Source: Caldilineaceae bacterium (GTDB lineage: Bacteria > Chloroflexota > Anaerolineae > Caldilineales > Caldilineaceae). From it: a stretch of 64,000 nucleotides of DNA. Of this stretch, positions 6,794 to 42,259 are shown piece after piece. The DNA is taken from positions 2,256,326-2,320,325 of the forward strand of contig OZ243971.1 in assembly GCA_965214715.1 (NCBI GenBank), read 5' to 3'. Made by a program: the position numbers and the translations under genes. Below the pieces are notes generated by a model that did not search any database, was not told where the DNA came from, and saw only the letters and a list, made by a program, of their open reading frames with translations. The first letter of the stretch is position 1, and each line of letters opens with the position of its first letter.

Positions 6794-7142
6794 GATCTCT
6801 GTCCACACTGAGCAAGACTGCACACCCGCGGCGCGGCATCCTGAACATTATCCATCATGGGGCCAGATTGCCGCATACAGGCCCAGACCAAGGCAAACGC
6901 AAGATGGGCTACCACCTCACCCCTGGAGCCTGCAGTCGAGGCCCGTTGGCGTTGGCCCGGGATGCACCCGCGGGTCGTTTTCGCCTGTGGCCGCCGATTG
7001 AGCGCCCCGCGGCGCGGGAGAGCCGGATGAGGCCGCTCCCGGACACCAAGCCATCTGTCCCACAGGGGATATCCCGTGTGGGACCGTCACGGAAAGCCAT
7101 GCGACTGTTTTGCCAGGCCGACAGAAGCGTCTGCCTCCCTAG

Positions 7143-8133
7143 TCAATGTGAAATGCCTATCATCTCAAAACATATACCAGGAGTATCAGCAAAATCAACA
7201 CCTAGGTTCTGTGCCCAATGTCGAGCCAAGTGATTGAGTTTGATCGAGTCACCGACACCGGCAACTTTGTCCCGCTGTTTTGCAGGACCAGGCCTGTCGC
7301 TATTCTCGGCCTGACTGATTGCATAGACTGCTTTGGCATATGTATACCAGACAAATCTCAAGCCAATGTGACCATCACAGGCCCATCTAACTTCAGTGGG
7401 GGATGATGCTTGTGCTACATCAAGCCAATGTGCAAATTGGCTTGCAAGGTTCTCGATAGTGTCCGCACTCAAGTTGCTATGCCTAGCCAAGGCCGCTTTC
7501 CAACAATCAGTGTTCCACAGAATTACAGAGGCTGAGAGTTCTATCGGTTCCCAATGGATGGTGCGACGCACAAGTGGCAGCTGACCCAACCGGTACGCAG
7601 CCAACCCCAGCGCACATGCGGTGCTGATTATCATTGGGAAGTTTTCCCGCAGACACTCCAGTGCTGTCTGTGCAATGCTGCCATCCAGCGAAAAGTCACT
7701 TAACGGTTTCCGAAAAACGTCAAAATCAAGCAAGTAATTTTCGATTGAGTGCCCGCGTGACCATACCAGTCTATCCATCTGACGCTGTGCACCCAAGGAA
7801 TCGACAATGGCATTGTCGATTCTGAATTCCCTGAATTCGCGGTCGACGAACCCAACGAATCTATCCCGAAATGGCGTGCCGGAGATCAATGCACTGACTT
7901 TTTCGACCTTCTCTCTATTGCCCTTCTCCCGGAGTTTCAGACTTTATGTATTCGGCAGTCCTGATTACTGCCTGTGACTGCGCAGCGTCGGGAAGACCCT
8001 TTGCTTCTCCCATGGCTTCAGAAAGGAGCATGAAGAATCTCTCGTCCTGACGCCCTTCCAACAAGATATGGGACTTCTGGGAAATCCGCACTTCAGTTGC
8101 GAACTCATCATAGGTTAACTGTAGGCCCGGCAT
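7143..8133 (-). pseudogene. Toprim/DUF4435-like nuclease (AriB-like), split by one frameshift near 7900-7940
   Basis: The N-fragment (8133..7915) has HILLEGRQDERFF. The C-fragment (open from about 7943 in another frame) has FVDREFREF and RGHSIENYLLD. I recall these as OLD/DUF4435 Toprim motifs. The two pieces are in different frames with no intact alternative. Confidence 0.6.
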
Positions 8134-8175
8134 TGTGCAGTACAGGCGGAAACAGCTGAATCCAACTCGCCTTCT

Positions 8176-9611
8176 TTAGTTGCTGACCAATTCGGAAATT
8201 GCGTTCACCGCTGATGGAGTCGACTCCGGGGATAATTCAATCATCCGCTCTTGATACTGGGCACCGATTATGGGTGAATGCGTACATACAATCAATTGTT
8301 TTGACGGGAGCTGCTTCTTCATGGCATCGATAATTTTGCGTTGCCAATCAATATGAAGTGACAGTTCGGGCTCATCTACAAGGATCGTGCTGCTCTTGTC
8401 AATGCGGGAGGCAGAGTAGATGAGTCCTGCAATCTGACGTTCCCCAGACGACAGTGTTTCCAGTGAGTTCAACTCGCCGTCACTGTGCCGGATCTGCAAT
8501 GAGGGTGTTGAATCAGTATCTTGCCGCAAAGCAGTCCCTAACTGCTTTCCTTCCAGAAAACAGTTGACTGCATCAATGTATGCACGAACTGCGTCAAACT
8601 CATGTATGAGGTTTTGGTAACGTTGATCAAGTATCTCTTCATATACACGCAGCACTCTGGTGGTCGTATCTTGCTCCTCCTGATTTAGCAGCTCCGTCGA
8701 ACCAAGCTGGGATTTCAGATCCTCGAATGTGGAATCACGGTCCAACAATCCGTACTCCTCTTGCGTTTGCTGGAGTTGTTCCAACATTTCCTCAATGCGC
8801 ATCCTGATGGTCTCTGGAGTTCTTGCATCTTGACCGGTCGGAATGGAATCCTGACTAATTGTTGCAAAAACTCTGTTGAAGGCTTCGGATAGAAGAGTTC
8901 TGTCGTCACGGGCCAGGCGGCTGACTGCCTTCTGTATATCTTGATCGAGAGTGCGTTGAATATCCCGAGGAGACGGGTAATCGATTGAAGGTACAAATTC
9001 GCCGAAAACCTCACGGGCAATTATGGTTTGGGAATCCAATTCTGCAGCCGCGCGGCGTGCAACATAAGGTTTGGCCAGTCGAGTTTGGGACCGGGCCTCT
9101 GCGAAAATCCGGGAATTCCGGAGACGCCCACTGCGGAGGAGGTCTGTGGGATCGATAAGGGACCAAGCCTCTTGCATGAAGCGAAAGGCTGGAAAATAGG
9201 TCGCCTTTATACTGTACTTTTTTTGTAGGACTCGATTAGCTCGACTGAAAAGTACCTTCGTGGCTCTATGCCATTGGACTCGAGAGGCAAGGCAGCAATC
9301 TGATCACCGTCTATTCGGAGTCTCACCGCGGAATCGCGGTCACGATCCAGTCTGCATGACTCATATTCGATGTATGGTCCGTCTGCAACATGCAGCTGGA
9401 TTGTCTTGAAAGACAATGCCGCAAATCGTTCCAGGTCCAGATTGGCCGCGTTCGTCAAAATATGGAGCAAGGTCGTTTTGCCAGAGCCGTTGACACCGTA
9501 AACGATATTGACTCCTTCAGAGAATGCTATGTCCAAGTCGAATTTCCCGTGGAGACCAACGACTTTTAGATGCTTCAGGTATTGGGACATATCTTCAGGA
9601 AGTGGACGCAT
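8176..9611 (-). pseudogene. ABC/SMC-type ATPase (AriA-like), split at an A7 run
   Basis: The N-fragment has Walker A GVNGSGKTTLLHIL. The C-fragment has LSSGERQ signature, ILVDEPELSLH Walker B and CTHSP H-loop. The frames differ by one nt at minus-strand AAAAAAA (9218-9224). Start is 9611 or 9590. Confidence 0.7.
9218..9224 (-). other. A7 run at the break point of the ATPase gene
   Basis: Zero frame reads TAC AAA AAA AGT ACA GTA TAA. The -1 frame reads AAG TAC AGT ATA AAG... and continues open into MQEAWSLIDP. Confidence 0.8.
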
Positions 9612-9997
9612 TATGCATTCAAAGCAAGCTCGCACTTCATTATAGGCTGGGTCCGCTATGGGCAAACGCGTGGGTGGGACATCGTGAGGACAACGACACA
9701 ATGGCCGCATCGGACAACCACAACGTGCCTAACCAAACAACCCATTGAAGCCCACGACTACCAAGACAAGAAGCGGCAACCGTCCGTGGGACTCGTACCG
9801 CCTGAAAACGACAGGGATTCGGCTACACTCAAGACTCTCACTGGACCCGCAGCTACAGTAGACTGGAAAATGGAACATACCTTCTTTGAGATGCCTACAG
9901 TGCCACTCCAGGTCCACGAGTGCATTAACCCCTATACCATTCAGACCGCACGAAAACAGTGGCTCTGTGCAGTGCAGCCAAGGCAATCGCAAAGTCA

Positions 9998-10300
9998 TCA
10001 AAAGCCCCGGATTTGCTCCCTGCAGGCCAGATTGCGGCCGGCCTTGAGACGCCGGTTTTCCATGCCCCAGTGACCGCAGAGGGCAGCCCGCAGGGAATTC
10101 GGCTCCCTCCGCCCGCAGGGTCTGCGTACTCTCTTTCCGGGTGCCCATGGCATCCAGCATGACGATGCAGCCCGCCAGCGGCGGGCGAGTCCAGACTCGC
10201 CACCCACCAGGCCAAGGGGACCTCCGGCCGTTGCGGATCCCGCATCTGCGAGACCCGATCGTAAGGTGTCGTGGGCAGGAATGCCATGCGGCAAGGCCAG
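9998..10300 (-). mobile_element. heavily deleted ISAs1-family transposase relic
   Basis: GIPAHDTL (compare GIPSHDTF), MLDAMGTRKE (compare DAMGCQ) and GHWGMEN (compare HWGIEN) are compressed into about 300 nt in mixed frames. Confidence 0.45.
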
Positions 10301-18856: not shown

Positions 18857-19840
18857 CTATGCATAGCGGCCCGTCACGAAAGCCACTCCTGCACCGGCCC
18901 GCACGGCAGGTGTATTGCGGAGCAATACCAGAATGCCGTCCCGATTGCTCTGCACAGTGCAGAGTTCCTGGCCCCATACATCCCGGATGACACCGATACG
19001 CTGTCCTTTTCCGATCTCTTCCAGCAGGGTCACCTCGCTTTCGAACAAGCCGGCACAGGGAGCGGATATGAGAAAGTCCAGGTTACCGTCGCCCCATAGA
19101 TGCAGTGCGGTCTCTGGGAATTCTTCTGCTCCAGAGCGCATTTCCAGCCAGGACATTACATTGGTCACCCCTTGGGCATAGCATTCAATGGCTGCAGGAC
19201 CTGCGCGCCCGCCTCCCGCAGTCTCTGTATACAAACTGGGAATTCCCGCTGCATGTGCTACGGAAATGGTGCGGCCGGGCGGTACTGGAGGGGGATGGCC
19301 CCAAATTACGGGCGCGCCAAAAGCCTTTGCGGCAGCCAGACTTTTCCGCCCGCCCGGCGACTCATCGTGCACATATCCCACCAATGTCGGCATGTCCATG
19401 TCCGGGCCGCCACTGTGCAGATCGATGTAAAAATCCGACTGCAGGATGAGTTGTCGACAGAGTACGTCGGCAATGCGTTGGGTCAGGGTGCCGTCGGGAT
19501 TTCCAGGACATTCACGCGCCAGGTTCAGACCGTCCACCGGACTGGTGCGGGAGTTGGCCTTGAAGGCGGGCATATGGGTTACGGGTACCATCACCACGGT
19601 ACCCTGCAGATGCCGAGGATCCAACCCCTGAAAGATTCGGAGGATGACCCTGACGCCTTCCCATTCATTGCCGTGAACCGCGGCGGTCACCACCAGGACG
19701 GGACTGCGCACACTGCCCGTGGCATGCAAGAGAGGTATCTGCCCGGCACCGCCGCCTGGACGCTCTGCTGGGGCCAGCACAGCACGTCCTTTGGAGCAGA
19801 GTGCCAGGTCGGCCAGGTCGAAGCGGGAAGTCGGGTCCAT
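18857..19840 (-). CDS. succinylglutamate desuccinylase/aspartoacylase (AstE/AspA, M14-like) family zinc hydrolase
   Basis: VVTAAVHGNEWEG zinc motif, NLARECPGNPDGTLTQRIA, DFYIDLHSGG. RBS AGGAGG. Co-oriented downstream of the 20161..21741 gene. Confidence 0.85.
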   Translation of the reverse strand: MDPTSRFDLADLALCSKGRAVLAPAERPGGGAGQIPLLHATGSVRSPVLVVTAAVHGNEWEGVRVILRIFQGLDPRHLQGTVVMVPVTHMPAFKANSRTSPVDGLNLARECPGNPDGTLTQRIADVLCRQLILQSDFYIDLHSGGPDMDMPTLVGYVHDESPGGRKSLAAAKAFGAPVIWGHPPPVPPGRTISVAHAAGIPSLYTETAGGGRAGPAAIECYAQGVTNVMSWLEMRSGAEEFPETALHLWGDGNLDFLISAPCAGLFESEVTLLEEIGKGQRIGVIRDVWGQELCTVQSNRDGILVLLRNTPAVRAGAGVAFVTGRYA

Positions 19841-20160
19841 CGCGTAGCCTCCTGTGGTGTCCAGACCGGGGCGTCAATGCCGACTGGCTCCGCTGCGTGT
19901 TGCCGGTGGGCAGTGAGCGTGCGTTACCGGGACAGAGCGGCCTGCCCTGGCGGACCCAGCCCCGCGGCTGTGCTCGGTGTGGGGCGTCACCCCAAGCAAC
20001 GCTGGCCGGACTGCAGAAACTCCCGGGTCTCTTCTGTCCAGGCGGTGGAAAGGCCTGCCAGGAGCTGGCTCCACAGCCCATGGCCGTCACAGGGCGCTCC
20101 GCTCTTTGGCCGCTGCACTCCCGGCGCCCTACCGCTTGCGCCAGGATGGCAGCGGCACCG

Positions 20161-21741
20161 TCACTCCCGCACCGCAAATTCCGCTTGCCAGAGGGTCCGT
20201 CGTTCGGCGGGGAGCCATTGACCGACGCGCATGCGCACAATCTCGTACTCCGGCAGCGGAATGATCACAAGGCACTGCCCGTCGGCGTGCATCCCGCCCG
20301 CCTCCCGGAAACGAAAATCCCGATTGTCGAAGCCGTATGCCCGCCGCGCCCGGGGCAGGCTGTCCAGATCGGCCGGCACCAGGTGCAGGACGAACGGCGC
20401 CTCGGTATCCGCCGGCGCACACGGCTCCCGGAAGTAGATCAACCGGTTGTCGCGGTGATAGACCGCAAATGCGGCGCGGACAACCGGCACCTGGGCCGCG
20501 AGCGCCTGAGAGGTCCTCTCGATGAAAGCCGCCGCAGTCGGGCGCACCGCAAATTCCGCTTGCCAGAGGGGTGGCTCGCCGGAGCGCCGTTGGCCGACGC
20601 GCATGCGCACAATCTCGTACTTCGGCAGCGGGATGATCACAAGGCACTGCCCGTCGGTGTGCATACCGCCCGCCTCCCGGAAACGAAAGTCCCAATTGTC
20701 GAAGCCGTATGCCCGCCGCGCCCGGGGCAGGCTGTCCGGATCGGCCGGCACCAGGTGCAGGATGAACGGCGCCTCGGTATCTGCCGGCACACACGGCTCC
20801 TTGAAGTAGGTCAACCGGTTGTCAATGAGATAGACCGCAAATGCGGCGCGGACGACCGGCTCCTGGGCCGCGAGCGCCGAGATGAAAGCCGCCTCGGTCC
20901 GGATCCTGACATACTGAAACCCCATCAACCCGACACTGGCCACCACGACTCCCGCGCACACCGTCCGCCAGGCCGGCCCCGCGGGCGCCGTGTTCCGGCC
21001 GCCCAGCCCCAGCCCCAGTTCCAGCGCATAGCCCAGGCAGAGAAAACCGAACAGATACTCCTGCGCTTCATTGATCTTCCCCTGGTGGGGATTGTACTCG
21101 TTCACATAGGAGACCGCCAGCACCAGCAGCCCCGTGGTGGCGATGAGCATGAACCACCCGGGTTGTCGGGCCAGCAGCGTGTAGCAGGCCAGCAGCAGCA
21201 ACAGATGTTTCCCGCGCCTGAAAAGGAAGTCCGGATCCAAGGCAACAAACGGGATGTCGGGATTCGCAGAGTAGGCCACCGTACTCGGATAGTAGGCCAG
21301 CATCACCAGAAAGCCCAGCAGCAGGGTGGCGTACCAGACGGTGTTTCTCACTACATTATTACCTCTGGAACCAATGTTGTGCACGTTGAATTCGCCCTGG
21401 AAGTTCACCGCCTGCAGGAAACCGGGCGTCGCGAAGCCGAAGAGCCGTTGCCCCCAACTGATTTCCTCGCCCGCACCGAACACCAGGGCGAGGCCCCCCA
21501 GCACATAGACGCCGCGCCGTCCCAGGCCCCGCTCCCTCCCGGCGGCGAACAACAGGACGAGACCGGCCAGACCCAGCCAGACCGCAGTGAGATTCTCCAC
21601 CACATTGTCTTCCTGCACCAGCGCCCTGTATTGCGGCGCGTCGGCCGCGAGAAGATAGCCCAGGCCAAGGACGTTCAGACACAGGCCCAGATAGCCCAGG
21701 AGGGCAACTTGCCCCCCCCCCCCCCCATTATGCGCCACCAT
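20161..21741 (-). CDS. polytopic membrane protein (about 8 TM, GAGEEISWGQRLFGF loop) with two tandem C-terminal copies of the family domain (paralogue A)
   Basis: 526-aa intact frame starting ATG GTG GCG CAT AAT + G15. About 90% identical to the inverted copy at 22287..23936. The opposite-strand ORF 19801..21819 is a GC shadow. Confidence 0.8.
   Translation of the reverse strand: MVAHNGGGGGQVALLGYLGLCLNVLGLGYLLAADAPQYRALVQEDNVVENLTAVWLGLAGLVLLFAAGRERGLGRRGVYVLGGLALVFGAGEEISWGQRLFGFATPGFLQAVNFQGEFNVHNIGSRGNNVVRNTVWYATLLLGFLVMLAYYPSTVAYSANPDIPFVALDPDFLFRRGKHLLLLLACYTLLARQPGWFMLIATTGLLVLAVSYVNEYNPHQGKINEAQEYLFGFLCLGYALELGLGLGGRNTAPAGPAWRTVCAGVVVASVGLMGFQYVRIRTEAAFISALAAQEPVVRAAFAVYLIDNRLTYFKEPCVPADTEAPFILHLVPADPDSLPRARRAYGFDNWDFRFREAGGMHTDGQCLVIIPLPKYEIVRMRVGQRRSGEPPLWQAEFAVRPTAAAFIERTSQALAAQVPVVRAAFAVYHRDNRLIYFREPCAPADTEAPFVLHLVPADLDSLPRARRAYGFDNRDFRFREAGGMHADGQCLVIIPLPEYEIVRMRVGQWLPAERRTLWQAEFAVRE
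20164..20905 (-). repeat. in-gene tandem duplication, two units of about 375 bp (about 125 aa) encoding the C-terminal domain
   Basis: CGCACCGCAAATTCCGCTTGCCAGAG recurs at 20168 and 20543, and the units align throughout at roughly 90% identity. Confidence 0.85.
21712..21726 (-). repeat. C15 (G15 on the coding strand) homopolymer, codons 6-10 of paralogue A
   Basis: Counted directly from the sequence. Encodes GGGGG. Confidence 0.95.
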
Positions 21742-21891
21742 GTTCTGCCCATGGCCCGCCCGGGTGCTCCGCAGGGAGCGTACCGTGATTCATTCTGCAT
21801 GGTCCCGCCTGTGGGGTGAGGCATCCAGTGCACCGGAGCCCATCATACCGCGGAAGCATCCACTCCCGGCACTGCAGCATTGTACCTGTAT

Positions 21892-22100
21892 CCCGATATC
21901 TCCATGGCCCAGACTGGATCCGCCGCGGTCCAGGGGCAGAGCCATCCGGGCCCGGATCGCCTGTACCTCTTTTTTGCCCCTGTACAGATCGATGTAAAAA
22001 TCCGACTGCAGGATGAGTGGCCAACTGAGTGGTCAACAAAGCATGGCGGCAATGCGTTGGGTCAGGGGACTGTCGGGATTTCCAGGACATTGTGCAGGTC
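21892..22100 (-). pseudogene. fragment of a second AstE/AspA-like gene in the inverted-repeat spacer
   Basis: The minus strand reads ...CPGNPDSPLTQRIAAMLC*..LILQSDFYIDL.., matching ECPGNPDGTLTQRIADVLCRQLILQSDFYIDL of the intact gene. A 33-nt stretch is identical to 19418-19450. Contains an in-frame stop and an internal deletion. Confidence 0.6.
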
Positions 22101-22286
22101 CTGGCATATACTGGAGGGCCGCGGCCCAGCGTCCGCGCTGCGGTGCCGGGAGTGGATGCCTCCACGGTATTGGACCGGTAGAACCGCGGGATGCCTCACC
22201 CCACAGGCGGGACCATGCAGAATGAATCACGGTACGCTCCCTGCGGAGCACCCGGGCGGGCCATGGGCAGAACATGGTGGCGCATA

Positions 22287-23936
22287 ATGGGGGGGGGGGG
22301 GGGGCAAGTTGCCCTCCTGGGCTATCTGGGCCTGTGTCTGAACGTCCTTGGCCTGGGCTATCTCTTCGCGGCCGACGCGCCGCAATACAGGATGCTGACG
22401 CAGGAAGACAGGGTGGTGGAGAATCTCACTGCGGTCTGGCTGGGTCTGGCCGGTCTCGTCCTGTTGTTCGCCGCCGGGAGGGAGCGGGGCCTGGGGCGGC
22501 GCGGCGTCTATGTGCTGGGGGGCCTCGCCCTGGTGTTCGGTGCGGGCGAGGAAATCAGTTGGGGGCAACGGCTCTTCGGCTTCGCGACGCCCGGTTTCCT
22601 GCAGGCGGTGAACTACCAGGACGAATTCAACGTGCACAACATCGTCATCGGTGCGCAGGATTGGAATAGAAGAGCCGTCTGGTACGCCACCCTGCTGCTG
22701 TGCACGGCCACCGGCGCCGCTTTCCTGTGCCGCAAGGATACCCTCTGCGGGCTCCCCTTGCCCTCCATGCCCCTGCTGCTGGGCTTTCTGGTGATGCTGG
22801 CCTACTATACGACTTCCCAAAGCGGATTTATTTTGGATCCGAACTTCCTTTTCATGCGCGGGAAACATCTGTTGCTGCTGCTGGCCTGCTACACGCTGTT
22901 TGCCCGACAACCCGGATGGTTCATGCTCATCGCCACCACGGTGGTGCTGGTGCTGGCGGTCTCGTATGTGAACCGGTACAACTCCCGGGCCATCGACCTT
23001 AACGCGATGGTGGAAGTGCAGGAGTATCTGTTCGGTTTTCTTTGCCTGGGCTATGCGCTGGAACTGGGGCTGGGGCCGGGCGGGCGGAACACGGCGCCCG
23101 CGGGTCTGGCCTGGCGGACGGTGTGCGCAGGAGTCGTGGTGGCCAGTGTCGGGTTGATGGGGTTTCAGTATGTCAGGATCCGGACTGAGGCGGCTTTCAT
23201 CGAGAGGACCTATCAGGCGCTCGCGGCCCAGGAGCCAGTCGTCCGCGCCGCATTTGCGGTCTATCTCCGCAAAAACCGGTTGACCTACTTCAAGGAGCCG
23301 TGTGTGCCGGCAGATACCGAGGCGCCGTTCATCCTGCATCTGGTGCCAGCTGATCTGGACAGCCTGCCCCGGGCGCGGCGGGCATACGGCTTCGACAATC
23401 GGGATTTTTACTTCCAGGGAGCGGGCGGTGTGCACGCCGACGGGAAGTGTTTTGTCATCATCCCGCTGCCGAAGTACGACATTGTGCGCATGCGCGTCGG
23501 CCAACGGCTCCCCGCCGAGCAACGGGCCCTCTGGCAAGCGGAATTTGCGGTGCGCCAGACTGCGGCGGCTTTCATCGAGAAGACATCTCAGGTGCTCGCG
23601 GCCCAGGTGCCGGTTGTCCGCGCCGCATTTGCGGTCTATCTCCGCGACAACCGGTTGATCTACTTCAAGGAGCCGTGTGCGCCGGCAGATACCGAGGCGC
23701 CGTTCGTCCTGCATCTGGTGCCGGCCGATCCGGACAGCCTGCCCAAGGCGCGGCGGGCATACGGCTTCGACAATCGGGATTTTCGTTTCCGGGAGGCGGG
23801 CGGGATGCACGCCGACGGGCAGTGCCTTGTGATCATCCCGCTGCCGAAGTACGAGATTGTGCGCATGCGCGTCGGCCAATGGCTCCCCGCCGAGCAACGG
23901 GCTCTCTGGCAAGCGGAATTTGCGGTGCGGGAGTGA
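22287..23936 (+). CDS. polytopic membrane protein with two C-terminal family domains (paralogue B)
   Basis: Intact frame. With G16 it is served by the ATG at 22287 (ATA-ATG-G15) or by in-frame ATGs back to 22191. The ATGGTG start used by paralogue A (22274) is out of frame here. Confidence 0.8.
   Translation: MGGGGGQVALLGYLGLCLNVLGLGYLFAADAPQYRMLTQEDRVVENLTAVWLGLAGLVLLFAAGRERGLGRRGVYVLGGLALVFGAGEEISWGQRLFGFATPGFLQAVNYQDEFNVHNIVIGAQDWNRRAVWYATLLLCTATGAAFLCRKDTLCGLPLPSMPLLLGFLVMLAYYTTSQSGFILDPNFLFMRGKHLLLLLACYTLFARQPGWFMLIATTVVLVLAVSYVNRYNSRAIDLNAMVEVQEYLFGFLCLGYALELGLGPGGRNTAPAGLAWRTVCAGVVVASVGLMGFQYVRIRTEAAFIERTYQALAAQEPVVRAAFAVYLRKNRLTYFKEPCVPADTEAPFILHLVPADLDSLPRARRAYGFDNRDFYFQGAGGVHADGKCFVIIPLPKYDIVRMRVGQRLPAEQRALWQAEFAVRQTAAAFIEKTSQVLAAQVPVVRAAFAVYLRDNRLIYFKEPCAPADTEAPFVLHLVPADPDSLPKARRAYGFDNRDFRFREAGGMHADGQCLVIIPLPKYEIVRMRVGQWLPAEQRALWQAEFAVRE
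22289..22304 (+). repeat. G16 homopolymer at the start of paralogue B
   Basis: Counted directly. One G longer than the mirror copy. Confidence 0.95.
23188..23933 (+). repeat. in-gene tandem duplication, two units of about 375 bp encoding the C-terminal domain
   Basis: AAFIERTYQALAAQEPVVRAAFAVY...AEFAVRQ is followed by TAAAFIEKTSQVLAAQVPVVRAAFAVY...AEFAVRE. Confidence 0.85.
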
Positions 23937-23946
23937 CGGTGCCGCT

Positions 23947-24146
23947 GGATCCTCAGCATCTGCAGGATACCATGGTGATCGTGGCGTAACCCATATGCCC
24001 GCCTTTAAGGCCAATCCCCGCACCAGTCCGGTGGAGACGCCTGCACCTGGCGCGGGCCCGATATCCCCATGGCCCAGACTGGATCCGCCGCGGCCCAAGG
24101 GAGAGCCACCCGGGCCCGGATCGCCTGCACCTCTCTTTGCCCCTGT
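23947..24146. pseudogene. mosaic AstE/AspA-like gene fragments
   Basis: 23947-24035 is the reverse complement of 19533-19622 of the intact gene (DPQHLQDTMVIVA*..HMPAFKANPRTSPV). 24057-24146 repeats the 21892-21983 piece in direct orientation. Confidence 0.55.
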
Positions 24147-33411: not shown

Positions 33412-35070
33412 TTATTCGATCCACGCATTGCCTGCCATCAACTCGTCGTTGACGGTCCAATCCAGGCCATGCACATTGGACTGGCGGGCAAACAGCGTGT
33501 ACTTCCAGGAAAGCGGAATGTCGACGCAGGCATCCAGCATAATCTCGTTGACTTTTCGGAAGGCCTCGCGCCGGGTTTCCCGGTCAAACGTGGCACCGGC
33601 AATCTGCAGGTTTTCCACGTAGCCTTCCGGAAAGTCGCCGCGGGGGAAAATGGGACTGGAACGAGGACGATACGGGCTATTGTCAAACAGCCCCATCGGG
33701 TCCAGATGCTGTCTTCCCACAAAAGTAACATCCAGATCGAATACGGCACTGCCATCCGTCTCCGGTGTACCGAGGTGCCGCGGGCCATACGTGGCGCTGT
33801 CCAGCGGTTCGACATCGACTTCCACCCCTATCGTGGCCAGATCGGCCTGCAAGATGGTGCCGATGTCCGTGGTCTCGGGAAAAGCCTGGATCGTGATCGT
33901 ATTCAGGACCAGCTTGACTCCATCCTTGTCCCTGACACCATCGCCGTCGCTGTCCACCCAGCCCGCTTCGTCCAGCAAGGCCGCAGACTGTTCCAGATCG
34001 AAACTGTAGGCATCGGCCAGATCTTCGAAATAGGCCACGGAATAGTCGGGAAATGCCAGTACCGTGGCCCCGCCCACCCCGAACAAAGCCTGATCCACTA
34101 TAGCGTCGCGGTCAATGGCCCAACAAACGGCTTGGCGGACCCGCTTGTCGCTGAGAGCCCCCTCCGGCTGGTCGGGATCGGGCGGATTCACCGTGATGGA
34201 ATACAGCAGACCGCCTTGCCCGAACTCGACCTCAATGCCCGAGTCCAGCAGGCGCTGATAGTCCTTGGGCGGAACGGCGATGGCAGCATCTATGATGCCG
34301 GTTTCCAGCGCCGTTACCAAGGCTTCCAGATCATCGAACGGTTTGAAAGACACCTCGTCCAGATAGGGCCGACCCTCGTCCCAATAGTTTTCGTTGCGGG
34401 CGAAGGTCAGAATGTCGCCCGGGATCCATTCCTGCAACGCAAACGGTCCCGTGCCAATACAGGAATTGGCCAGGGAATCGAACGACTCGGGGGCCATGAT
34501 GCGCATCACGTTCAGGATGTCGAACATGTTGGGCGTGGGCGCGGAAAACTCGATCGTGACACTATGGTCCCCATGAGCCACGGCGCCCGTGACCGTCTGC
34601 ACCATGCCGTGCACATTGGAGCCTGTATCCGGAACCAGGGCCCGTTCAATGTTCTGCACCACATCGGCCGCCACGAAAGACCGCCCATTGTGCCAGACCA
34701 CATCGTCACGCAGGGTCAGCGTGACCGCGGTGCCGTCGTCGTTCGTCTCCCATGCCGTGGCCAAGCGCGGCAGAATGTTCAGTCTCTTGTCGTAGACAAT
34801 CAAGCTGTCATAGCACTGGTTCTGCATGGGATAGCTGACAAAACCGAGCGAAAACGCGTCAAAGTTAATAATGTCATCCGTAGTGCCCACGACCAGGGAG
34901 CCGCCTCTTTGGGGACCCCCTTCCATGGTCACGGCATCGGCTGCCGGAGCGGCACCGCTGGGCGGGGCCGGGGCGCAGGAGATACTGGCCACCGCCAGGA
35001 CCAGCAGCAAGGCCACCCACAAGCCCAGTCGAGTTATATACCTAGCACGGCAAAACATAGCCAACCTCAT
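33412..35070 (-). CDS. ABC transporter substrate-binding lipoprotein, family 5 (peptide/nickel type)
   Basis: Lipobox LAVASISC, 552 aa, family-5 SBP size and layout. First gene of the permease operon. Confidence 0.9.
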   Translation of the reverse strand: MRLAMFCRARYITRLGLWVALLLVLAVASISCAPAPPSGAAPAADAVTMEGGPQRGGSLVVGTTDDIINFDAFSLGFVSYPMQNQCYDSLIVYDKRLNILPRLATAWETNDDGTAVTLTLRDDVVWHNGRSFVAADVVQNIERALVPDTGSNVHGMVQTVTGAVAHGDHSVTIEFSAPTPNMFDILNVMRIMAPESFDSLANSCIGTGPFALQEWIPGDILTFARNENYWDEGRPYLDEVSFKPFDDLEALVTALETGIIDAAIAVPPKDYQRLLDSGIEVEFGQGGLLYSITVNPPDPDQPEGALSDKRVRQAVCWAIDRDAIVDQALFGVGGATVLAFPDYSVAYFEDLADAYSFDLEQSAALLDEAGWVDSDGDGVRDKDGVKLVLNTITIQAFPETTDIGTILQADLATIGVEVDVEPLDSATYGPRHLGTPETDGSAVFDLDVTFVGRQHLDPMGLFDNSPYRPRSSPIFPRGDFPEGYVENLQIAGATFDRETRREAFRKVNEIMLDACVDIPLSWKYTLFARQSNVHGLDWTVNDELMAGNAWIE

Positions 35071-35662
35071 TTCTGTTCAAGTCAAAGTCAAAACGCATCC
35101 GGTCAATACAACCCTCTCTCTGCGACCGGCCGCGCGGGCAGCCAAGCATACAGGGCAATAGGAAAAGGTGCACAGTGACAGACGAAGTTTCATTCTAACA
35201 CCTCCCTGATTCAAACGCCCTGCCTTCCCAGGCAATCGCCAGGTCACGAATTGAAGCCGCAAGGGACATACCGGAACAGGTGCCATACACAGCAAAAAGC
35301 CCATATGAATCCCAAAACGCCGGGAGGCTCCTGGCGGTGCTTGCGGTCGACATGCTCGGCCTCGCGGTCTGTGCCTGCATAGGCTGTCAATGCCATTGGT
35401 CAGCATCGCGGAGTTCAGACGTGATCTCCAAGCCGGGTTTGCAACCTGGCAGCTTTGCGACGAAATACCCGCACAAAATCGGGCAGGAAAAACAAATGCC
35501 TCCAGGCCGGTCATATTGCGGCTGGCCTGGAGGCAATCCTGCCTTTTTGACGACTTTGCGATGATTTGGGATTACTCGCAGTCAAATACCCTGACTTCCT
35601 GTTTTTAAGTGATAAAATTGGCATAAAATAACATAAACAGAAACAATATCAGGGAAAGTGGC

Positions 35663-36940
35663 ATGCTGATCGAATTTTCCGTAGCAAACTTCAAGTCCAT
35701 CAAGGAAGAGGCCTGCTTGAACATGACGGCCGGACCTGGAAGAGAGCACAGGAAAATACATCTGGTGGTGCCTACACTGACGGCGAGAAGTCAACCTTCC
35801 CCCTTGGTCCGTACGGCGGTGATTTTCGGCGCCAATGCAGCGGGAAAGTCAAATTTGCTGGATGCCTTGAGGGTCATGAAGAACATCGTCCGCACATCCA
35901 GCCAAGGTCCTGCGGAACTTCCCGTAATCCCCTTCAAGTTTGATTTTGACAGCAAGAACCAAAGCACTGTGTTTGAAGTCAAGTGTATTGTCCAGGGAAT
36001 CCGTTTTATCAATATGGTTTTAGTGTCACCAAGGACAGGGTGCATGACGAATGGCTCTTTGCCTGGCCGCGGGGAAGAGTGCAAACCTGGTTTGAACGCG
36101 ACGGTCCCCACTGGAAATTGGGAGACAAGCTGACCGGCGACAAGGAGCTCTGGAAACGCACTACCCGCCCGGATGCCTTGTTCCTTTTCCACGGCCGTGT
36201 CTCTGAACAGCGAACAGTTGCGGCCACTGTATGACTGGTTTCACCATACAGTGCAGTATCCCACACCCCACGGCTGGACAGATGCGCTCTCACTTAAATT
36301 CTCACTTAAATATTGTCAAGACGAGCGCAAGCAGGCAGTCATTGATTTCTTGCATTCTGCAGATCTGGGCATTGCAGACCTGCGCATTACAAAAAAAGAA
36401 TTTTCGCCTGACATGCTCCCTGCTACCATATCCGTGGAAATGAAGGAAGAACTGACAAGAGGACTGGCGAGCAAGATGATCGTGGAGGATCTTTTTCTAA
36501 GACATGACACGGGCCTTGGCTACTCCACGGAACTGGATATGAAAGCGGAGTCGGCCGGCACGCAAAAGATCTTTTCGCTGGCGGGTCCTTGGCTTGAGGG
36601 CTTAAGCAATGGAAATGTGCTTGTAATCGACGAATTGGACAACAGCCTGCATCCCCAGCTGGTCGCGTTTTTGGTGGAGCGGTTCCACGACCCGGCAGTG
36701 AATACAAAAGGAGCCCAGCTCATATTTTCCACTCACGACGCTGCCCTCCTGAGTCAGGACAGATTCCGCAGAGATCAGATCTGGTTTTGTGAACGCAACA
36801 CATGACAGGAAACCCATCTGTATCCCTTGACGGATTTCCGTCCTCGCAAGGATCTGGAAAATCTTGAGCGCTCCTGTCTGGCAGGGCGATACGGAGCTCT
36901 GCCTTACACGCGACCGACAACCGTCCTGCATAGCCATTGA
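35663..36940 (+). pseudogene. AAA_21/abortive-infection-type ATPase: two frameshifts and one in-frame TGA
   Basis: Walker A IFGANAAGKSNLLDAL, YQYGFSVTKDRVHDEWLF in a second frame, VLVIDELDNSLHP...IFSTHD back in the first frame. TGA at 36803-36805 precedes the conserved tail LAGRYGALPY. Confidence 0.75.
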
Positions 36941-36943
36941 ACT

Positions 36944-37108
36944 ATGGCGAGACGCCCACCCCGTCCCCAGAGCAGAAGGCGGCAACCAGTCCGCGAAGCA
37001 TACGCACGCGTCCTCATTCTCTGCGAAGGGAAGAAAACCGAGGTGACCTATTTCAATGATCTCGTGGCACATTACAGTCTGAGCACAGCCAGCATAATAA
37101 GAGTGTAA
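36944..37108 (+). pseudogene. RloB-like protein, N-terminal 54 codons only
   Basis: ARVLILCEGKKTEVTYFNDL matches the RloB-like (Toprim-type) N-terminal motif. The frame ends at ...ASIIRV*, where high-G+C DNA begins. Confidence 0.6.
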
Positions 37109-37153
37109 AATAGGGATACTCCGGTAGTCCGGGGTTGGCCTGGCACCTATCCG

Positions 37154-37230
37154 GGGCGGATAGCTCAGTTGGTTAGAGCACTTCGTTTACACCGAAGGGG
37201 CCGGGGGTTCAAGTCCCTCTCTGCCCACCA
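37154..37230 (+). tRNA. tRNA-Val (anticodon TAC), CCA encoded
   Basis: Acceptor GGGCGGA/TCTGCCC, D stem GCTC/GAGC, anticodon stem CTTCG/CGAAG with loop TTTACAC, T arm GGGGG-TTCAAGT-CCCTC, then A-CCA. Confidence 0.9.
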
Positions 37231-37641
37231 GGCCATACACAAGCCAGCACCTTCGCGTCCAGACTCAAGTTAGGGGGGCCGGACTGAGCGCTTCCCCTGC
37301 ACTACTCCCGAATGTCCCCGTCATGCGGGGGAAGCTTTGATCTCCACTCTGCGCCCGCAGAATGTCTGCAGGGCTTCCTTCCCAAGTCGGCGGCGCGGCC
37401 GGGAAATTCAGAAATCCAGTCACGAACACGTACACTGTCGTATAGCCTGCATATACGTAGTGCCAGGCGCAACGATCAGCCATGAAGCCAAAGCGGACCT
37501 TACCATGGACGCCGAGTTGCCAAGCGGTATGCCTACGCAAACAGGCGCTCAGGGAGGCAGTGGAAAAGGGCCGCAGGCAAAGTCTGACATGAGTGCACCG
37601 CATCGTCTTTGGCGTTTATTTGCGTCCATATATTCTGATGA

Positions 37642-37652
37642 GGGGGGGGGGG
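37642..37652 (+). repeat. G11 homopolymer immediately after an ATG (37638), 100 nt upstream of the annotated start of paralogue C
   Basis: Counted directly. Context CTG ATG A G11 ATATGCGC. Confidence 0.95.
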
Positions 37653-37752
37653 ATATGCGCTCTCCCCGGCTGCACAATGCCCTGTTCGTCCTGTTTGTGG
37701 GCAGCATTCTGGTGTACAGACGCCGGCCAGCGGTCGCCACCCCGGACGGGAT

Positions 37753-39942
37753 ATGGCGCTGGGCCTGGCCTGCGTACCCTGGCTGGCCCTGCTGGGCTGG
37801 ATGACCGCCCTGACCTGGTTTCTGACGGATGATGCCTTCATCAGTTTCCGGTACGTGCGCAACCTGCTGGAAGGCCACGGTCTCGTCTTCAACCCCGGCG
37901 AGCGCGTCGAGGGGTACTCCAACTTTCTGTGGATCCTGGAACTGGCCGCCATCTGGCGGGTGGGGGGCGTGGAGCCCGAAGTTGCATCCCGGTGGCTGTC
38001 GGTCGTCTGCACCGTGGGCACCCTCGGCACCCTGCTGTGGTGGATGGCGCACCAGCCTGCGGTGGGACACCGCGGGCTGGTGATCTGGATGGCGCTGGGA
38101 CTGGTGTGCAGCAGCGCGACGTTCGCCGTGTGGACCTCGGGAGGCGGCCTGGAAACGCGGCAGTTCAGCCTGTTTGTGGTGGTGGCCGTGGTGTGCCTGG
38201 GCCTCTACCGTCACCACCCCGCGGGGCTGCTGGCCGCGTCGCTCAGTCTGGCGGGGGCGGCCCTGACCCGGCCCGAGGGGCCGCTGCTGGCTCTCTGCTG
38301 TTTTGGCTGGTTCCTCGGCCAACGGATGGCGGTGGCCGGCCGGGAGGGGCTGCACCGGGAGGGCCGGCGGGCCCTCCTCTGTCTGGTCGGACCGTGCGTG
38401 GCCCTGGTCGGGGCCCATTTCCTGTTCCGGTATGCGTACTATGGCGAGTGGCTGCCCAACACCTACCATGCCAAGCACGTCCGGGCGTGGTACGAGTCCG
38501 GCTTCCGCTACCTGTGGGCGGCGGCCCTGGAGACGGGGCTGTACCTGTGGCTGCCCCTGGCCTACATGGCCGCGCGGGCGCAGTGGCGCCAGCACCGGGA
38601 TGGCACGTTCGCGCTGGGGCTGGGGCTGGTGGGTACGCACATGGCCTATGTGATGCACATGGGGGGCGACCATTTCGAGTACCGTCCGCTGGACTTCTAC
38701 TGGCCCCTGCTGGCCTTCCCCGCCGCCACGGGTCTGGCGGGCCTGGCCGCGCGGATTGTGACCCGGGACCCGGGGCGGCCCCGCGCGCCCTTCCGGCGTT
38801 GGGGGGGGAGTGTGGACACAGGCGCCCGGGCCATGATGCTGATGCTCTTCGCGCCGGTCTGGTTCTATGCCAGTGCCCTGCAGGGGCTCCTGTTATATGA
38901 GGGGAGCCGGATCCATGAGTACATTCCGAGACTGCACATTGAGCTCGATCATGCAAATGCCCGGTGGTTACGGGTCGCCCCCGGCATGCCCATGCTGACC
39001 GCGGTTTCCAACGATCTGCGCCGCTTGATGGCGGTGCATAAGGTCGCCTCCCCTTTCACGCTACACCGCGCGTTCGCCAACCAGCAGATCCGAAGATGGA
39101 AGCCATACTACGTGCATATGGAGAGGGGCGTGATGCCGGATGATGCCCTGATGGCCGGCGGTGCCCTCGGCATTCGCTTCTACTACCTGCCGGACCTGGC
39201 GGTCATTGATCTCCACGGCTTGACCGACGCGACGATCGCGCGCCATCCGGTCACGATCCCCAACCACCAGCGCGCCATGGCCCATGACCGCAGCCCACCG
39301 GCCGGGTACCTGGAGGCCCGGGGCGTCAATTTCACGGTATACCCGGCGGCGGCCAGCGCCTCGGCCGCGTTGCGCCGCGCGGAGTACGCCCTGCCCGTGG
39401 GACCCGACCTGTGGATGCCGTTCGATGCCCCGGAGCGACAGTGGGTCCTCGATCGCTTTGCCCGCCAGAACCTGGTGACCTATATATGCCTGACAGGCCC
39501 TCCGGACCCGGCCGCGGGGAGCGCGTGGGGTGTGGACTGTGCGCCAGAGGACCGGATCGTGTGGGCCGGGGCGGACGCCTGGCGATCCCGTCTGCTCCGG
39601 GACCGCCGGCCCGTCATCCAGTCCGCCTGGGACGTGTATCACCTGGGCGACCGTCTGGTCTACGTCAGGGAACCCTGCGGACCGGCAGATGTGGCTGCCT
39701 CCCCCTTCTTCCTGCATGTGGTCCCGGTCCATCCCCAGGACCTCCCCGTCCCGCGCCGGTCCTATGGCTTTGACAACCTTGACTTCCACTTCCCGCAATA
39801 CGGCGTGATGTTCCGCGGATGGTGCCTGGCGGAGGTCCCGCTCCCGGCCTACCGGATCCGGAGCCTCCGCACCGGCCAGTATGTACGCCGGGAGGACAGT
39901 TTCCAGCATGTCTGGGAAGGCGAATTCCGCCATGTCCCATAG
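37753..39942 (+). CDS. GT-C-like polytopic membrane protein (DDAFISFRY...NPGERVEGYSNFLW loop) with one C-terminal family domain (paralogue C)
   Basis: 729-aa intact frame from the internal ATG at 37753. The frame stays open upstream to the TGA at 37639-37641. 96-97% identical to the next copy by eye. Glycosyltransferase assignment rests on a recalled motif only. Confidence 0.8.
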   Translation: MALGLACVPWLALLGWMTALTWFLTDDAFISFRYVRNLLEGHGLVFNPGERVEGYSNFLWILELAAIWRVGGVEPEVASRWLSVVCTVGTLGTLLWWMAHQPAVGHRGLVIWMALGLVCSSATFAVWTSGGGLETRQFSLFVVVAVVCLGLYRHHPAGLLAASLSLAGAALTRPEGPLLALCCFGWFLGQRMAVAGREGLHREGRRALLCLVGPCVALVGAHFLFRYAYYGEWLPNTYHAKHVRAWYESGFRYLWAAALETGLYLWLPLAYMAARAQWRQHRDGTFALGLGLVGTHMAYVMHMGGDHFEYRPLDFYWPLLAFPAATGLAGLAARIVTRDPGRPRAPFRRWGGSVDTGARAMMLMLFAPVWFYASALQGLLLYEGSRIHEYIPRLHIELDHANARWLRVAPGMPMLTAVSNDLRRLMAVHKVASPFTLHRAFANQQIRRWKPYYVHMERGVMPDDALMAGGALGIRFYYLPDLAVIDLHGLTDATIARHPVTIPNHQRAMAHDRSPPAGYLEARGVNFTVYPAAASASAALRRAEYALPVGPDLWMPFDAPERQWVLDRFARQNLVTYICLTGPPDPAAGSAWGVDCAPEDRIVWAGADAWRSRLLRDRRPVIQSAWDVYHLGDRLVYVREPCGPADVAASPFFLHVVPVHPQDLPVPRRSYGFDNLDFHFPQYGVMFRGWCLAEVPLPAYRIRSLRTGQYVRREDSFQHVWEGEFRHVP

Positions 39943-42188
39943 CCAGCGAGGCGTACAGACGCCGACCAGCGGTCGCCACCCCGGACGGGGCCTGGTGCTG
40001 GGCCTGGCCTGCGTACCCTGGCTGGCCCTGCTGGGCTGGATGACCGCCCTGACCTGGTTTCTGACCGATGATGCCTTCATCAGCTTCCGGTACGTGCGCA
40101 ACCTGCTGGAAGGCCACGGTCTCGTCTTCAACCCCGGCGAGCGCGTCGAGGGGTACTCCAACTTTCTGTGGATCCTGGAACTGGCCGCCATCTGGCGGGT
40201 GGGGGGTGTGGGGCCCGAAGTTGCGTCCCGGTGGCTGTCGGTCGTCTGCACCGTGGGCACCCTCGGCACCCTGCTGTGGTGGATGGCGCGCCAGCCCGCG
40301 GTGCCCCACCGCAGGCTGGTGACCTGGATGGCGCTGGGACTGGTGTGCAGCAGCGCGACGTTCGCCGTGTGGACCTCGGGGGGCGGCCTGGAAACGCGGC
40401 AGTTCAGCCTGTTTGTGGTGGTGGCCGTGGTGTGCCTGGGCCTCTACCGGCACCACCCCGCGGGGCTGCTGGCCGCGTCGCTCAGTCTGGCGGGGGCGGC
40501 CCTGACCCGGCCCGAGGGGCCGCTGCTGGCTCTCTGCTGTTTTGGCTGGTTCCTCGGCCAACGGATGGCGGTGGCCGGCCGGGAGGGGCTGCACCGGGAG
40601 GGCTGGCGGGCCCTCCTCTGTCTGGTTGGACCGTGCGTGGCCCTGGTCGGGGCCCATTTCCTGTTCCGGTATGCGTACTATGGCGAGTGGCTGCCCAACA
40701 CCTACCATGCCAAGCACGTCCGGGCGTGGTACGAGTCCGGCTTCCGCTACCTGTGGGCGGCGGCCCTGGAGACGGGGCTGTACCTGTGGCTGCCCCTGGC
40801 CTACATGGCCGCGCGGGCGCAGTGGCGCCAGCACCGGGATGGCACGTTCGCGCTGGTGCTGCTTCTGCTTGGTACGCACATGGCGTATGTGATGCACATG
40901 GGGGGCGACCATTTCGAGTACCGTCCGCTGGACTTCTACTGGCCCCTGCTGGCCTTCCCCGCCGCCACGGGTCTGGCGGGCCTGGCCGCGCGGATTGTGA
41001 CCCGGGACCCGGGGCGGCCCCGCGCGCCCTTCCGGCGTTGGGGGGGGAGTGTGGACACAGGCACCCGGGCCATGATGCTGATGCTCTTCGCGCCGGTCTG
41101 GTTCTATGCCAGTGCCCTGCAGGGGCTCCTGTTATATGAGGGGAGCCGGATCCATGAGTACATTCCGAGACTGCACATTGAGCTCGATCATGCAAATGCC
41201 CGGTGGTTACGGGTCGCCCCCGGCATGCCCATGCTGACTGCGGTTTCCAACGATCTGCGCCGCCTGATGGCGGCGCATCAGGTCGCCGCCCCTTTCACGC
41301 TACACCGCGCGTTGGCCAACCAGCAGATCCGAAGATGGAAGCCATACTACGTGCATATGGAGAGGGGCGTGATGCCAGATGATGCCCTGATGGCCGGCGG
41401 TGCCCTCGGCATTCGCTTCTACTACCTGCCGGACCTGGCGGCCATTGATCGGTTCGGCTTGACCGACGCGACGATCGCGCGCCATCCGGTCACGACCCCC
41501 AACCACCAGCGCAGGATGGCCCATGACCGCAGCCCACCGGCCGGGTACCTGGAGGCCCGGGGCGTCAATATCACGGTATACCCGGCGGCGGCCAGCGCCT
41601 CGGCCGCGTTGCGCCGCGCGGAGTACGCCCTGTCCGTGGGGCCCGACCTGTGGATGCCGTTCGATGCCCCGGAGCGACAGTGGGTCCTCGATCGCTTTGC
41701 CCGCCAGAACCTGGTGACCTATATATGCCTGACAGGCCCTCCGGACCCGGCCGCGGGGAGCGCGTGGGGCGTGGACTGTGCACCTGAGGACCGCATCGTG
41801 TGGTCCGGGGCGGACGCCTGGCGGTCCCGTCTGCTCCGGGACCGCCGGCCCGTCATCCAGTCCGCCTGGGACGTGTATCACCTGGGCGACCGTCTGGTCT
41901 ACGTCAGGGAACCCTGCGGACCGGCAGATGTGGCTACCCCCCCCCCCATTCTTCCTGCATGTGGTCCCGGTCCACCCCCAGGACCTCCCTGCCCCGCGCC
42001 GGGCCTATGGCTTTGACAACCGCGACTTCCGCTTCCCGCAATACGGCATGATGTTCCCCGGGGGGTGCCTGGCGGAGGTCCCGCTCCCGGCCTACCGGAT
42101 CCGGAGCCTCCGCACCGGCCAGTATGTACGCCGGGAGGACGACGGTTTCCAGCATGTCTGGGAAGGCGAATTCCGCCCTGCCCCATAG
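39932..42188 (+). pseudogene. GT-C-like membrane protein, paralogue D, frame broken at a C11 run (phase-OFF state or pseudogene)
   Basis: ATG 39932 overlaps the stop of paralogue C (ATGTCCCATAG). The frame runs to 42016. The C-terminal domain (FFLHVVPVHPQDLPAPRRAYGFDNRDF...EGEFRPAP*) continues in the +1 frame to 42188. Confidence 0.75.
41937..41947 (+). repeat. C11 homopolymer inside paralogue D
   Basis: GCT A C11 A TTC TTC CTG, compared with GCT GCC TCC CCC TTC TTC CTG in paralogue C. Confidence 0.95.
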
Positions 42189-42259
42189 GCAGCGAGGAGG
42201 AAGGAAGCCGGCCAGCGGTCGCCATCCCGGACGGGGCCTGGCGCTGGGCCTGGCCTGCG

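Follow-up and report, generated by a model that had tools for sequence, protein, structure and literature searches.

The 64-kb window analyzed here (the whole stretch of 64,000 nucleotides [nt] from contig OZ243971.1 of a Caldilineaceae bacterium, positions 2,256,326 to 2,320,325) contains two paralogous membrane protein genes, A and B, that carry uninterrupted runs of 15 and 16 G's, respectively, directly behind their start codons. We consider it likely that these G15 and G16 tracts are hypermutable homopolymers acting as translational contingency loci in a multicopy family of envelope membrane proteins. A contingency locus had been suggested in the first-pass annotation of this DNA, and the idea is now supported by tracts at the same position in relatives, by variable tract length between identical flanks, and by open reading frames (ORFs) that stay intact when out of frame. 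Members of the family combine an N-terminal membrane domain (Ndom) with C-terminal beta-sandwich domains (Cdom). The elements around the two tracts are the following, with positions given within the window.

21712..21726, minus strand (C15 on the plus strand): G15 tract of gene A, five Gly codons in frame with the ATG at 21741
21727..21741, minus strand: leader of A, ATGGTGGCGCATAAT; its terminal AT and the first G of the tract form a second ATG in another frame
20161..21741, minus strand: gene A, 526 aa, with Ndom and two Cdom beta-sandwich repeats, without a 27-aa helix-loop segment
22274..22288, plus strand: leader of B, identical to the leader of A; the ATG at 22274 is out of frame at G16 and the ATG at 22287-22289 is in frame
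22289..22304, plus strand: G16 tract of gene B
22287..23936, plus strand: long frame of gene B, 549 aa from the ATG at 22287, with a complete Ndom and two Cdom repeats
22274..22669, plus strand: dead-end frame of 131 codons, opened by ATGGTG when the tract is G16

The arrangement of starts and frames described in the first-pass annotation is confirmed at the nucleotide level. Gene A reads ATG GTG GCG CAT AAT, then G15, then CAA GTT, and is an open ORF of 526 aa. Gene B has the same leader with 16 G's; apart from this extra G, there is no indel near the 5' ends. With G16, the frame opened by the ATGGTG at 22274 is closed after 131 codons by a stop at 22669, and the translations confirm that the protein frame of B is served by the ATG at 22287 or by in-frame ATGs farther upstream (22263, 22215, and 22191). 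The claim that one nucleotide of tract length picks the start codon is also borne out, as starts lie in two frames and a TAA in the third. In both genes, tract lengths of 3n place the ATG at -15 in frame, lengths of 3n+1 place the ATGs at -2, -26, -74, and -98 in frame, and lengths of 3n+2 have no start, with the TAA within the CATAAT directly before the tract closing this last frame.

In the mechanism that we propose, slipped-strand mispairing during replication would add or remove G's, and the length of the tract would decide which of the start codons is in frame with the first transmembrane helix (TM1). In the 3n state (G15, gene A) the ATG at -15 would be used, giving MVAHN-Gly(n)-TM1, and in the 3n+1 state (G16, gene B) the ATG at -2, or those at -26, -74, or -98, would give M-Gly(n)-TM1. 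The 3n+2 state would be off, because the TAA directly precedes the tract. Whatever the frame, a homopolymer is read as the same residue, so the product would differ only in a short cytoplasmic tail, and the presence of start codons in two frames would make this a three-state design. We infer that the ATG at -2 would serve as a start and that switching within the population would be reversible and occur at a high rate.

The C15 at 21712-21726 and the G16 at 22289-22304 are the two longest homopolymers of the window. Given its base composition, the window should hold 0.0015 G/C runs of at least 15 nt, in line with the order of 10^-3 estimated earlier, and it has 2; for runs of at least 11 nt, the figures are 4 observed versus 0.17 expected. 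All four of these longer runs are found in genes with the same C-terminal domain, Cdom. The triplet GGG makes up 20% of the Gly codons in the window, and five consecutive GGG codons would have a probability of about 4e-4 if the choice were made on protein grounds. Both the length (at least about 8 G/C) and the placement of the tract, behind the start codon and ahead of the main part of the ORF, so that one base more or less shifts the frame, are those of homopolymer contingency loci.

The tract appears to be a trait of the whole family. A profile scan with one genome per species gave 570 relatives, of which 79 loci (689 kb) were kept, all from metagenome-assembled genomes (MAGs) that belong to Chloroflexota, Acidobacteriota, Nitrospirota, Alpha- and Gammaproteobacteria, Latescibacteria, Spirochaetota, Gemmatimonadota, and Binatia. 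Twenty-six of the 45 Ndom genes (the window included), from at least 6 phyla, have an uninterrupted G/C run of 9 to 26 nt that lies no more than 40 nt from the first membrane helix. Across the 79 loci, we found 34 G/C runs of at least 12 nt versus 0.66 expected and 26 of at least 15 nt versus 0.019 expected. Runs of at least 9 nt lie within 40 nt 5' of the Ndom start in 24 of 51 cases in these loci (binomial P, ~5e-56), and most of the others stand ~1.0 or 1.6 kb ahead of a Cdom, where genes with a different N-terminal domain begin. The first-pass annotation had pointed to orthologous loci as the place to look for the tract and its length, and there it is, at the same position in distant homologs of several phyla and with lengths of 9 to 26 nt; as independent assemblies carry it at varied lengths, the possibilities raised at that stage, that orthologs have no tract, that its length is fixed everywhere, or that it is an assembly artifact, do not hold.

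Most lineages have poly-C (Pro) at this position, Caldilineaceae and some Dehalococcoidia have poly-G (Gly), and in no case is the tract interrupted. Given this exchange of Gly and Pro, the unbroken homopolymer, and the 20% share of GGG, the constraint lies on the DNA homopolymer and not on the peptide. A negative control is provided by 80 distant relatives from other metagenomes (L082 to L161; Ndom only, ~47% G+C), which have no 5' tracts. The membrane domain by itself (230 to 280 aa, with the motif AGEEISWGQR) is widespread in unrelated metagenomes, where it has no beta-sandwich and matches no Pfam or NCBIfam model. We also observed a bias in the tract flanks: among runs of at least 9 nt in loci L001 to L079, TA precedes 21 of the 37 C-tracts and G follows 28 of the 37, and several G-tracts have the form C-Gn-TA, the reverse complement of the C-tract flanks, with a stop directly after the tract in one frame. 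Shared ancestry would explain part of this bias, which spans different gene families.

Tract length varies even where the surrounding sequence does not. All seven pairs of copies from long-read MAGs with at least 85% identical 40-nt flanks differ in tract length (13/17, 13/12, 19/15, 9/10, 15/25, 11/23, and 15/16), and to judge from these alignments the tract mutates faster than its flanks. Among the 25 tracts of at least 9 nt that were scored, 13 can be read in frame from an upstream ATG or GTG and 1 from a TTG alone, and the other 11 are out of frame, versus 10 of 10 in frame for tracts of 5 to 7 nt (Fisher P, 0.007 to 0.015). One locus (L023) has three tandem paralogs with the same leader, one with G9 (in frame) and the others with G10 and G13 (both out of frame). 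Fifteen out-of-frame copies (the 11 among the scored tracts, with ORFs of 428 to 539 codons, and four complete G11 copies of L080 and L081, described below) have intact ORFs of 420 to 539 codons with no second lesion. The ratio of nonsynonymous to synonymous substitution rates (dN/dS) between paralogs is 0.42 to 0.78, and dS reaches 0.79. Intact ORFs at such a divergence argue that the out-of-frame copies have not been silent for long and are not old pseudogenes. The family thus shows length polymorphism with conserved flanks (6, 11, 15, and 16 on the same leader) and on alleles together with intact off alleles, as contingency loci do.

Among the closest relatives of A and B, two other paralogs of the same genome have tracts of ~G15 (P0004) and ~G22 (P0002), lengths that were inferred from the protein only. 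L080, a contig with a short-read assembler name, has three tandem copies with G11 each, and L081 has two copies, also with G11 each. In these five copies, the leader ATG(G/A)TGGCGCATAAT followed by G11 leads to a dead frame, and gene callers therefore start the proteins downstream (P0005 to P0007). L052, from a Caldilineaceae MAG, has G6, which is in frame from the ATG at -2, and is frameshifted further on. P0002 and the poly-G loci of Dehalococcoidia have a common leader peptide, ...(Y/H)(S/G)QN(I/M)..-Gly(n), which places the tract ~20 to 25 codons into the ORF; A and B have lost this longer leader peptide through a 1-nt indel. An exact search of a metagenome collection for TGGCGCATAAT followed by G9 found nothing, and the profile scan of the same collection gave only distant Ndom-only relatives.

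A and B had been described as a head-to-head pair of paralogs. The pair is real, but its two genes are the inner ends of a larger inverted duplication, and A is missing a membrane segment of 27 aa. The features of this region are as follows.

19533..24035: inverted duplication carrying A and B, with arms at 19533-21878 and 22137-24035 and a unique spacer of ~258 nt
22137..22273, plus strand: conserved, most likely noncoding leader of B, ~140 nt, mirrored at 21742-21878 for A
22084..22112, plus strand: promoter-like AGGACA-17-TATACT for B, a consensus match only, with the TATACT block kept in L080 and L052

The arms of this ~2.3-kb inverted duplication are 90 to 100% identical. Identity is 100% over the 115 nt that comprise tract, leader, and upstream sequence (21712-21826 versus 22189-22303) and 97% over the 353 nt that follow this block, with the single extra G as the sole indel. 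The ~90 nt after the stop of B (23946-24035) are homologous to an internal piece (19533-19623) of the AstE/AspA-like gene downstream of A, and ~527 nt of the A side (19624-20150) are missing on the B side; the 23946-24035 piece looks like a relic of the inverted duplication and a later deletion.

The ~140-nt stretch upstream of the starts of A and B is conserved across paralogs and assemblies more strongly than the coding sequence. In 8 copies from 4 assemblies, its nucleotides are conserved and the frames of its upstream ATGs are not, as these are shifted by an 11-nt and a 1-nt indel, so it is most likely an untranslated leader. An internal segment of ~30 nt comes in two variants, one in A and L052 and the other in B, L080, and L081. 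An Rfam search with the leader gave no match, and RNAalifold gave no meaningful covariation for the only 8 sequences, which are closely related; we do not claim an RNA element here. The only promoter-like site lies ~165 nt upstream. A homopolymer switch in a promoter spacer was rejected, as the tract is not between -35 and -10 elements but comes after start codons and, in relatives, after a conserved leader peptide. An invertible promoter was set aside because the inverted repeats are the genes themselves, each with its own conserved leader, although neither a recombinase nor inversion junctions were searched for.

The AlphaFold model of B (75 homologs; predicted local distance difference test score [pLDDT], 89) is a confident one, in which about 9 membrane helices precede two beta-sandwich domains. 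Ndom, the membrane part, has the invariant motif AGEEISWGQR and an E-D pair in the first loop, and Cdom is a beta-sandwich of ~115 aa with two conserved Cys residues. In both proteins, the tract directly abuts the first membrane helix. By the positive-inside rule, the N-terminal tail with the Gly run would be cytoplasmic and the Cdom repeats would lie outside the cytoplasm. The A and B proteins may act at the cell surface; the model has ~9 helices and two beta-sandwiches with conserved Cys, and Cdom is common to GT-C transferases. A Foldseek search with the B model retrieved nothing for the membrane part and a weak Ig/FN3-like similarity for the sandwiches. A GT-C identity (PMT_2 or AftB-like) of the membrane domain was rejected, as no significant match was obtained with Pfam, NCBIfam, Foldseek, or the PDB profile and hhalign against the AftB-like family aligns the Cdom only.

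The other two long tracts of the window belong to a second family, represented by the tandem genes C1 and C2. These and comparable tracts in related loci are listed below.

37638..37652, plus strand: ATG-A-G11 at the 5' end of C1, with the G11 at 37642-37652; at G11, the ATG at 37638 opens an overlapping ORF of 64 codons
37753..39942, plus strand: gene C1, 729 aa from an internal ATG, putative AftB-like GT-C glycosyltransferase with one Cdom
39881..42188, plus strand: gene C2, tandem paralog of C1, split into two frames by a C11 within Cdom
41937..41947, plus strand: C11 within the Cdom of C2, where a C10 or C13 would repair the frame
L011, 2699-2732: C34, 5' tract of a GT2 glycosyltransferase gene, out of frame with a nearby ATG; adjoins family genes
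L076, 2134-2150: C17, 5' tract of a GT2 glycosyltransferase gene, out of frame with a nearby ATG; adjoins family genes
L026, 7257-7281: C25, 5' tract of an arylsulfotransferase gene; adjoins family genes
L039, 2378-2428: C51 at the 5' end of a Cdom gene of 887 aa
L060, 4181-4201: G21 inside the membrane domain, apparently in frame
L064, 4622-4644: G23 inside Cdom, apparently in frame

C1 and C2 are recognizable as putative AftB-like GT-C glycosyltransferases: their profile (A4) matches the mycobacterial arabinosyltransferase AftB (9dlf_C) with an E value of 4e-6 over positions 12 to 263, the N-terminal membrane core, and a loop motif, DDAFISFRY, is conserved in this AftB-like family. The structure model of C1 (pLDDT, 61) was too poor, and its fold search was not used as evidence. 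The peptide encoded between the G11 of C1 and the ATG at 37753 is homologous to the annotated N termini of C1 homologs, so the full C1 ORF is in frame only at G10 or G13. According to hhalign, Cdom alone is common to the two families of the window (A/B versus C1/C2). It is also C-terminal in PMT_2 GT-C transferases of other loci, and PMT_2 transferases in related loci start with C15 and C25 tracts. A further Cdom gene, in L021, starts with G13 and has a PMT_2-like N-terminal motif without a significant Pfam match. With Cdom fused to GT-C transferases and with tract-led GT2 and arylsulfotransferase genes in related loci, the gene class fits, as far as it can be predicted, the usual targets of contingency loci. 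Within the C1/C2 array region (37638-42600), there is also a remnant third start of the family at 42124 and an in-frame G8 at the same position in C1 (38801) and C2 (41040).

Several other explanations have to be weighed against a translational switch. The tract could be an ordinary low-complexity poly-Gly or poly-Pro coding linker in the cytoplasmic tail, with all copies in frame and the frameshifts, that of G16 included, arising as consensus errors. One-base errors in a run of 15 to 16 nt are plausible for a long-read consensus, every out-of-frame state is one base from an in-frame state, and any tail length is tolerated (5 to about 9 residues are seen), but we regard a linker as unlikely. 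It leaves unexplained why the codons are solely GGG or CCC over up to 51 nt when GGG is 20% of Gly codons and why the residue varies by lineage, Gly or Pro, with the homopolymer kept. It also needs errors in 11 of 25 tracts. Copies with identical flanks differ by 4, 10, and 12 nt, which is more than consensus errors can account for, and a short-read style assembly has the dead-frame G11 three times and a second assembly twice. A nonadaptive reading, in which real and unstable tracts are mutational hot spots of a redundant and decaying family and out-of-frame copies are recent pseudogenes on their way to loss, is likewise improbable. The dN/dS values of 0.42 to 0.78 are above those of typical core genes, gene A has lost a membrane helix, L052 and C2 have further frameshifts, and there are many paralogs per genome, all of which would suit decay. 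An unselected homopolymer, however, would soon be interrupted by point mutation, and here it is pure in at least 6 phyla at a dS of up to 0.79; moreover, 15 of 15 complete out-of-frame copies are without a second lesion in 420 to 539 codons, and start codons are kept in two frames with a stop in the third.

The tract might instead act on DNA or transcription, as a G-quadruplex or recombination element for gene conversion, or as a promoter spacer, or the head-to-head repeats might flip a shared promoter. An all-G intramolecular quadruplex needs at least 15 G's, the 115 nt at the tract are 100% identical versus 90 to 97% elsewhere, which suggests recent gene conversion, and the CATAAT immediately before the tract is similar to a -10 box. 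We find this extremely unlikely, as many tracts of the family (9 to 13 nt) are too short for a quadruplex, each repeat arm has its own leader and its own -10-like element, and the tract is downstream of conserved start codons (and, in the Chloroflexota relatives, of a conserved leader peptide) and abuts the first helix, and hence is translated. Expression independent of frame, by RNA polymerase slippage or ribosomal frameshifting on the G/C run, would give mRNAs of mixed length and some protein from every copy, and would let the tract tune the amount of protein without an on/off state. Runs of 13 to 51 nt far exceed what replication slippage needs, and the out-of-frame copies are intact over long divergence. 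Transcriptional slippage at homopolymers is established according to the review PMC3711429, where a comparable proposal is mentioned for poly(A) frameshifts in insect endosymbionts (citing Wernegreen 2010); the bacterial cases documented there are, however, A or T runs, and G/C runs are not an established case. The sequence does not separate slippage from switching at the DNA level, and the two are not exclusive, but slippage in place of a switch seems very unlikely to us. None of these alternatives explains the conservation, purity, and variable length of the tracts and the intact out-of-frame ORFs together.

Some observations do weigh against a phase-variable switch. There is no convincing Shine-Dalgarno sequence at either start codon (ATG -15 or ATG -2). 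One-base length calls in runs of at least 13 nt are uncertain in a long-read consensus, and the G15/G16 difference could itself be a consensus error. Part of the out-of-frame fraction may also be technical; the related MAGs look like long-read assemblies, and genome notes of comparable projects (Aquatic Symbiosis Genomics) describe assembly by metaMDBG on HiFi reads. The five identical G11 tracts of L080 and L081 are unlike independent rapid slippage and could be explained by gene conversion or by an effect of the assembler. Gene A, in frame with the canonical start, may be nonfunctional: it is without the 27 residues LLLCTATGAAFLCRKDTLCGIPLPSMP, a membrane helix-loop present in B, P0002, P0004, and all distant homologs, so that the topology downstream may be disturbed or inverted, even though its ORF is intact. 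The dN/dS of A versus B is 0.78, which is near neutral. Last, the membrane domain has no match in Pfam or NCBIfam, and A and B have none to a PDB sequence profile, that would assign a function to these proteins.

Known systems with a related logic include the Haemophilus influenzae lic loci, where tetranucleotide repeats are found behind alternative start codons placed in two of the three frames, making a three-state switch whose alternative products differ in translation efficiency. The A/B leader resembles them in having start codons in two frames upstream of the repeat, and thus potentially two products or levels plus an off state, but its repeat is a homopolymer and not a tetranucleotide unit. 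The poly-G/C genes of Campylobacter jejuni, for capsule, lipooligosaccharide, and flagellar glycosylation (PMC8355987), are similar in their pure 5' G/C runs at many loci per genome, in having envelope glycosylation genes among the targets, and in the mix of on and off states with intact ORFs. They differ in tract length (~8 to 13 nt, whereas here it is up to 26 nt in the family and 51 nt in neighboring genes). The hosts here are also different, being uncultivated Chloroflexota and other phyla with ~60% G+C, and the main target is an uncharacterized membrane protein family. In Neisseria lgtA/C/D and pgtA (PMC2192423 and PMC2193922), a poly-G in the coding region of transferases for surface glycans sets the frame and paralogs lie side by side, as in the window; there, function and switching have been demonstrated experimentally, whereas here only C1 and C2 are recognizable glycosyltransferases (AftB-like) and no activity can be assigned to A and B. 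The poly-A tract of Listeria inlA (PMC2831843) also lies at the 5' end, so that a frameshift yields a very short product, and the hypermutability measured for 5' homopolymer tracts is ~1,000 times the point mutation rate (PMC2831843); the tracts described here differ in consisting of G/C and in spanning 9 to 51 nt.

The first-pass annotation knew of no description of such a design in a high-G+C, Chloroflexota-like background, and this holds only in part. In the Mycobacterium tuberculosis complex, also high in G+C, homopolymer phase variation is known from the 7C tract of glpK (bioRxiv 10.1101/717272) and from a genome-wide survey (bioRxiv 10.1101/2022.06.10.495637), with G/C frameshifts that are reversible, so the design is not restricted to low-G+C pathogens. 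Those tracts, unlike the ones described here, are ~7 nt long, lie at varied positions in single-copy metabolic genes, and form no conserved 5' family module. Our literature search found no report of homopolymer phase variation for Chloroflexota or sponge symbionts; given the mycobacterial precedent, the novelty would lie in the lineage and the gene family and not in the G+C content.

Slipped-strand phase variation is textbook knowledge for a few cultured pathogens and has barely been explored in uncultivated, nonpathogenic, host-associated bacteria. Here, the switch would accompany an uncharacterized and greatly expanded family across phyla of uncultivated, apparently host-associated bacteria. 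If the tracts do switch, many symbiont lineages would maintain a large stock of envelope proteins and glycan-modifying enzymes whose expression is stochastic, with a bearing on how symbionts escape phagocytosis by the host or attack by phages. As a tentative extension, for which we see not quite an even chance, phase-variable 5' homopolymer modules could be shared throughout the community of a host-associated microbiome, the host probably being a marine sponge. The module would consist of a start codon, a G/C run of 9 to 51 nt, and the first membrane helix, and it would be placed on several classes of envelope genes: membrane/beta-sandwich proteins, AftB-like and PMT_2 GT-C transferases with Cdom, GT2 glycosyltransferases, and arylsulfotransferases. 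A sponge origin of the related MAGs is suggested by the style of the records, the mix of taxa, and the Aquatic Symbiosis Genomics genome notes. The spread over Chloroflexota, Acidobacteriota, Nitrospirota, Alpha- and Gammaproteobacteria, Spirochaetota, and Binatia would imply either horizontal exchange of gene and switch or repeated convergence. Stochastic surface variation would then be a general strategy of mutualistic symbionts and not of pathogens only. Gene callers truncate or mis-start genes of the family (P0003 and P0005 to P0008), and the signal may be masked in short-read assemblies or by homopolymer-tolerant polishing, which makes it easy to overlook the family and its switches.

Two further observations concern the rest of the window. 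A C8 at 4126-4133 encodes an in-frame Gly-Gly-Val in a minus-strand tgt-like (queuine tRNA-ribosyltransferase) gene and looks ordinary, showing that 8-mers also occur outside the contingency design. Finally, G+C content falls to 0.48 to 0.53 at 7000-10000 and 35000-37230, versus ~0.61; the second of these stretches runs up to a tRNA gene (37154-37227) that immediately precedes the C1/C2 array, and this border may be the edge of an island inserted at the tRNA gene.

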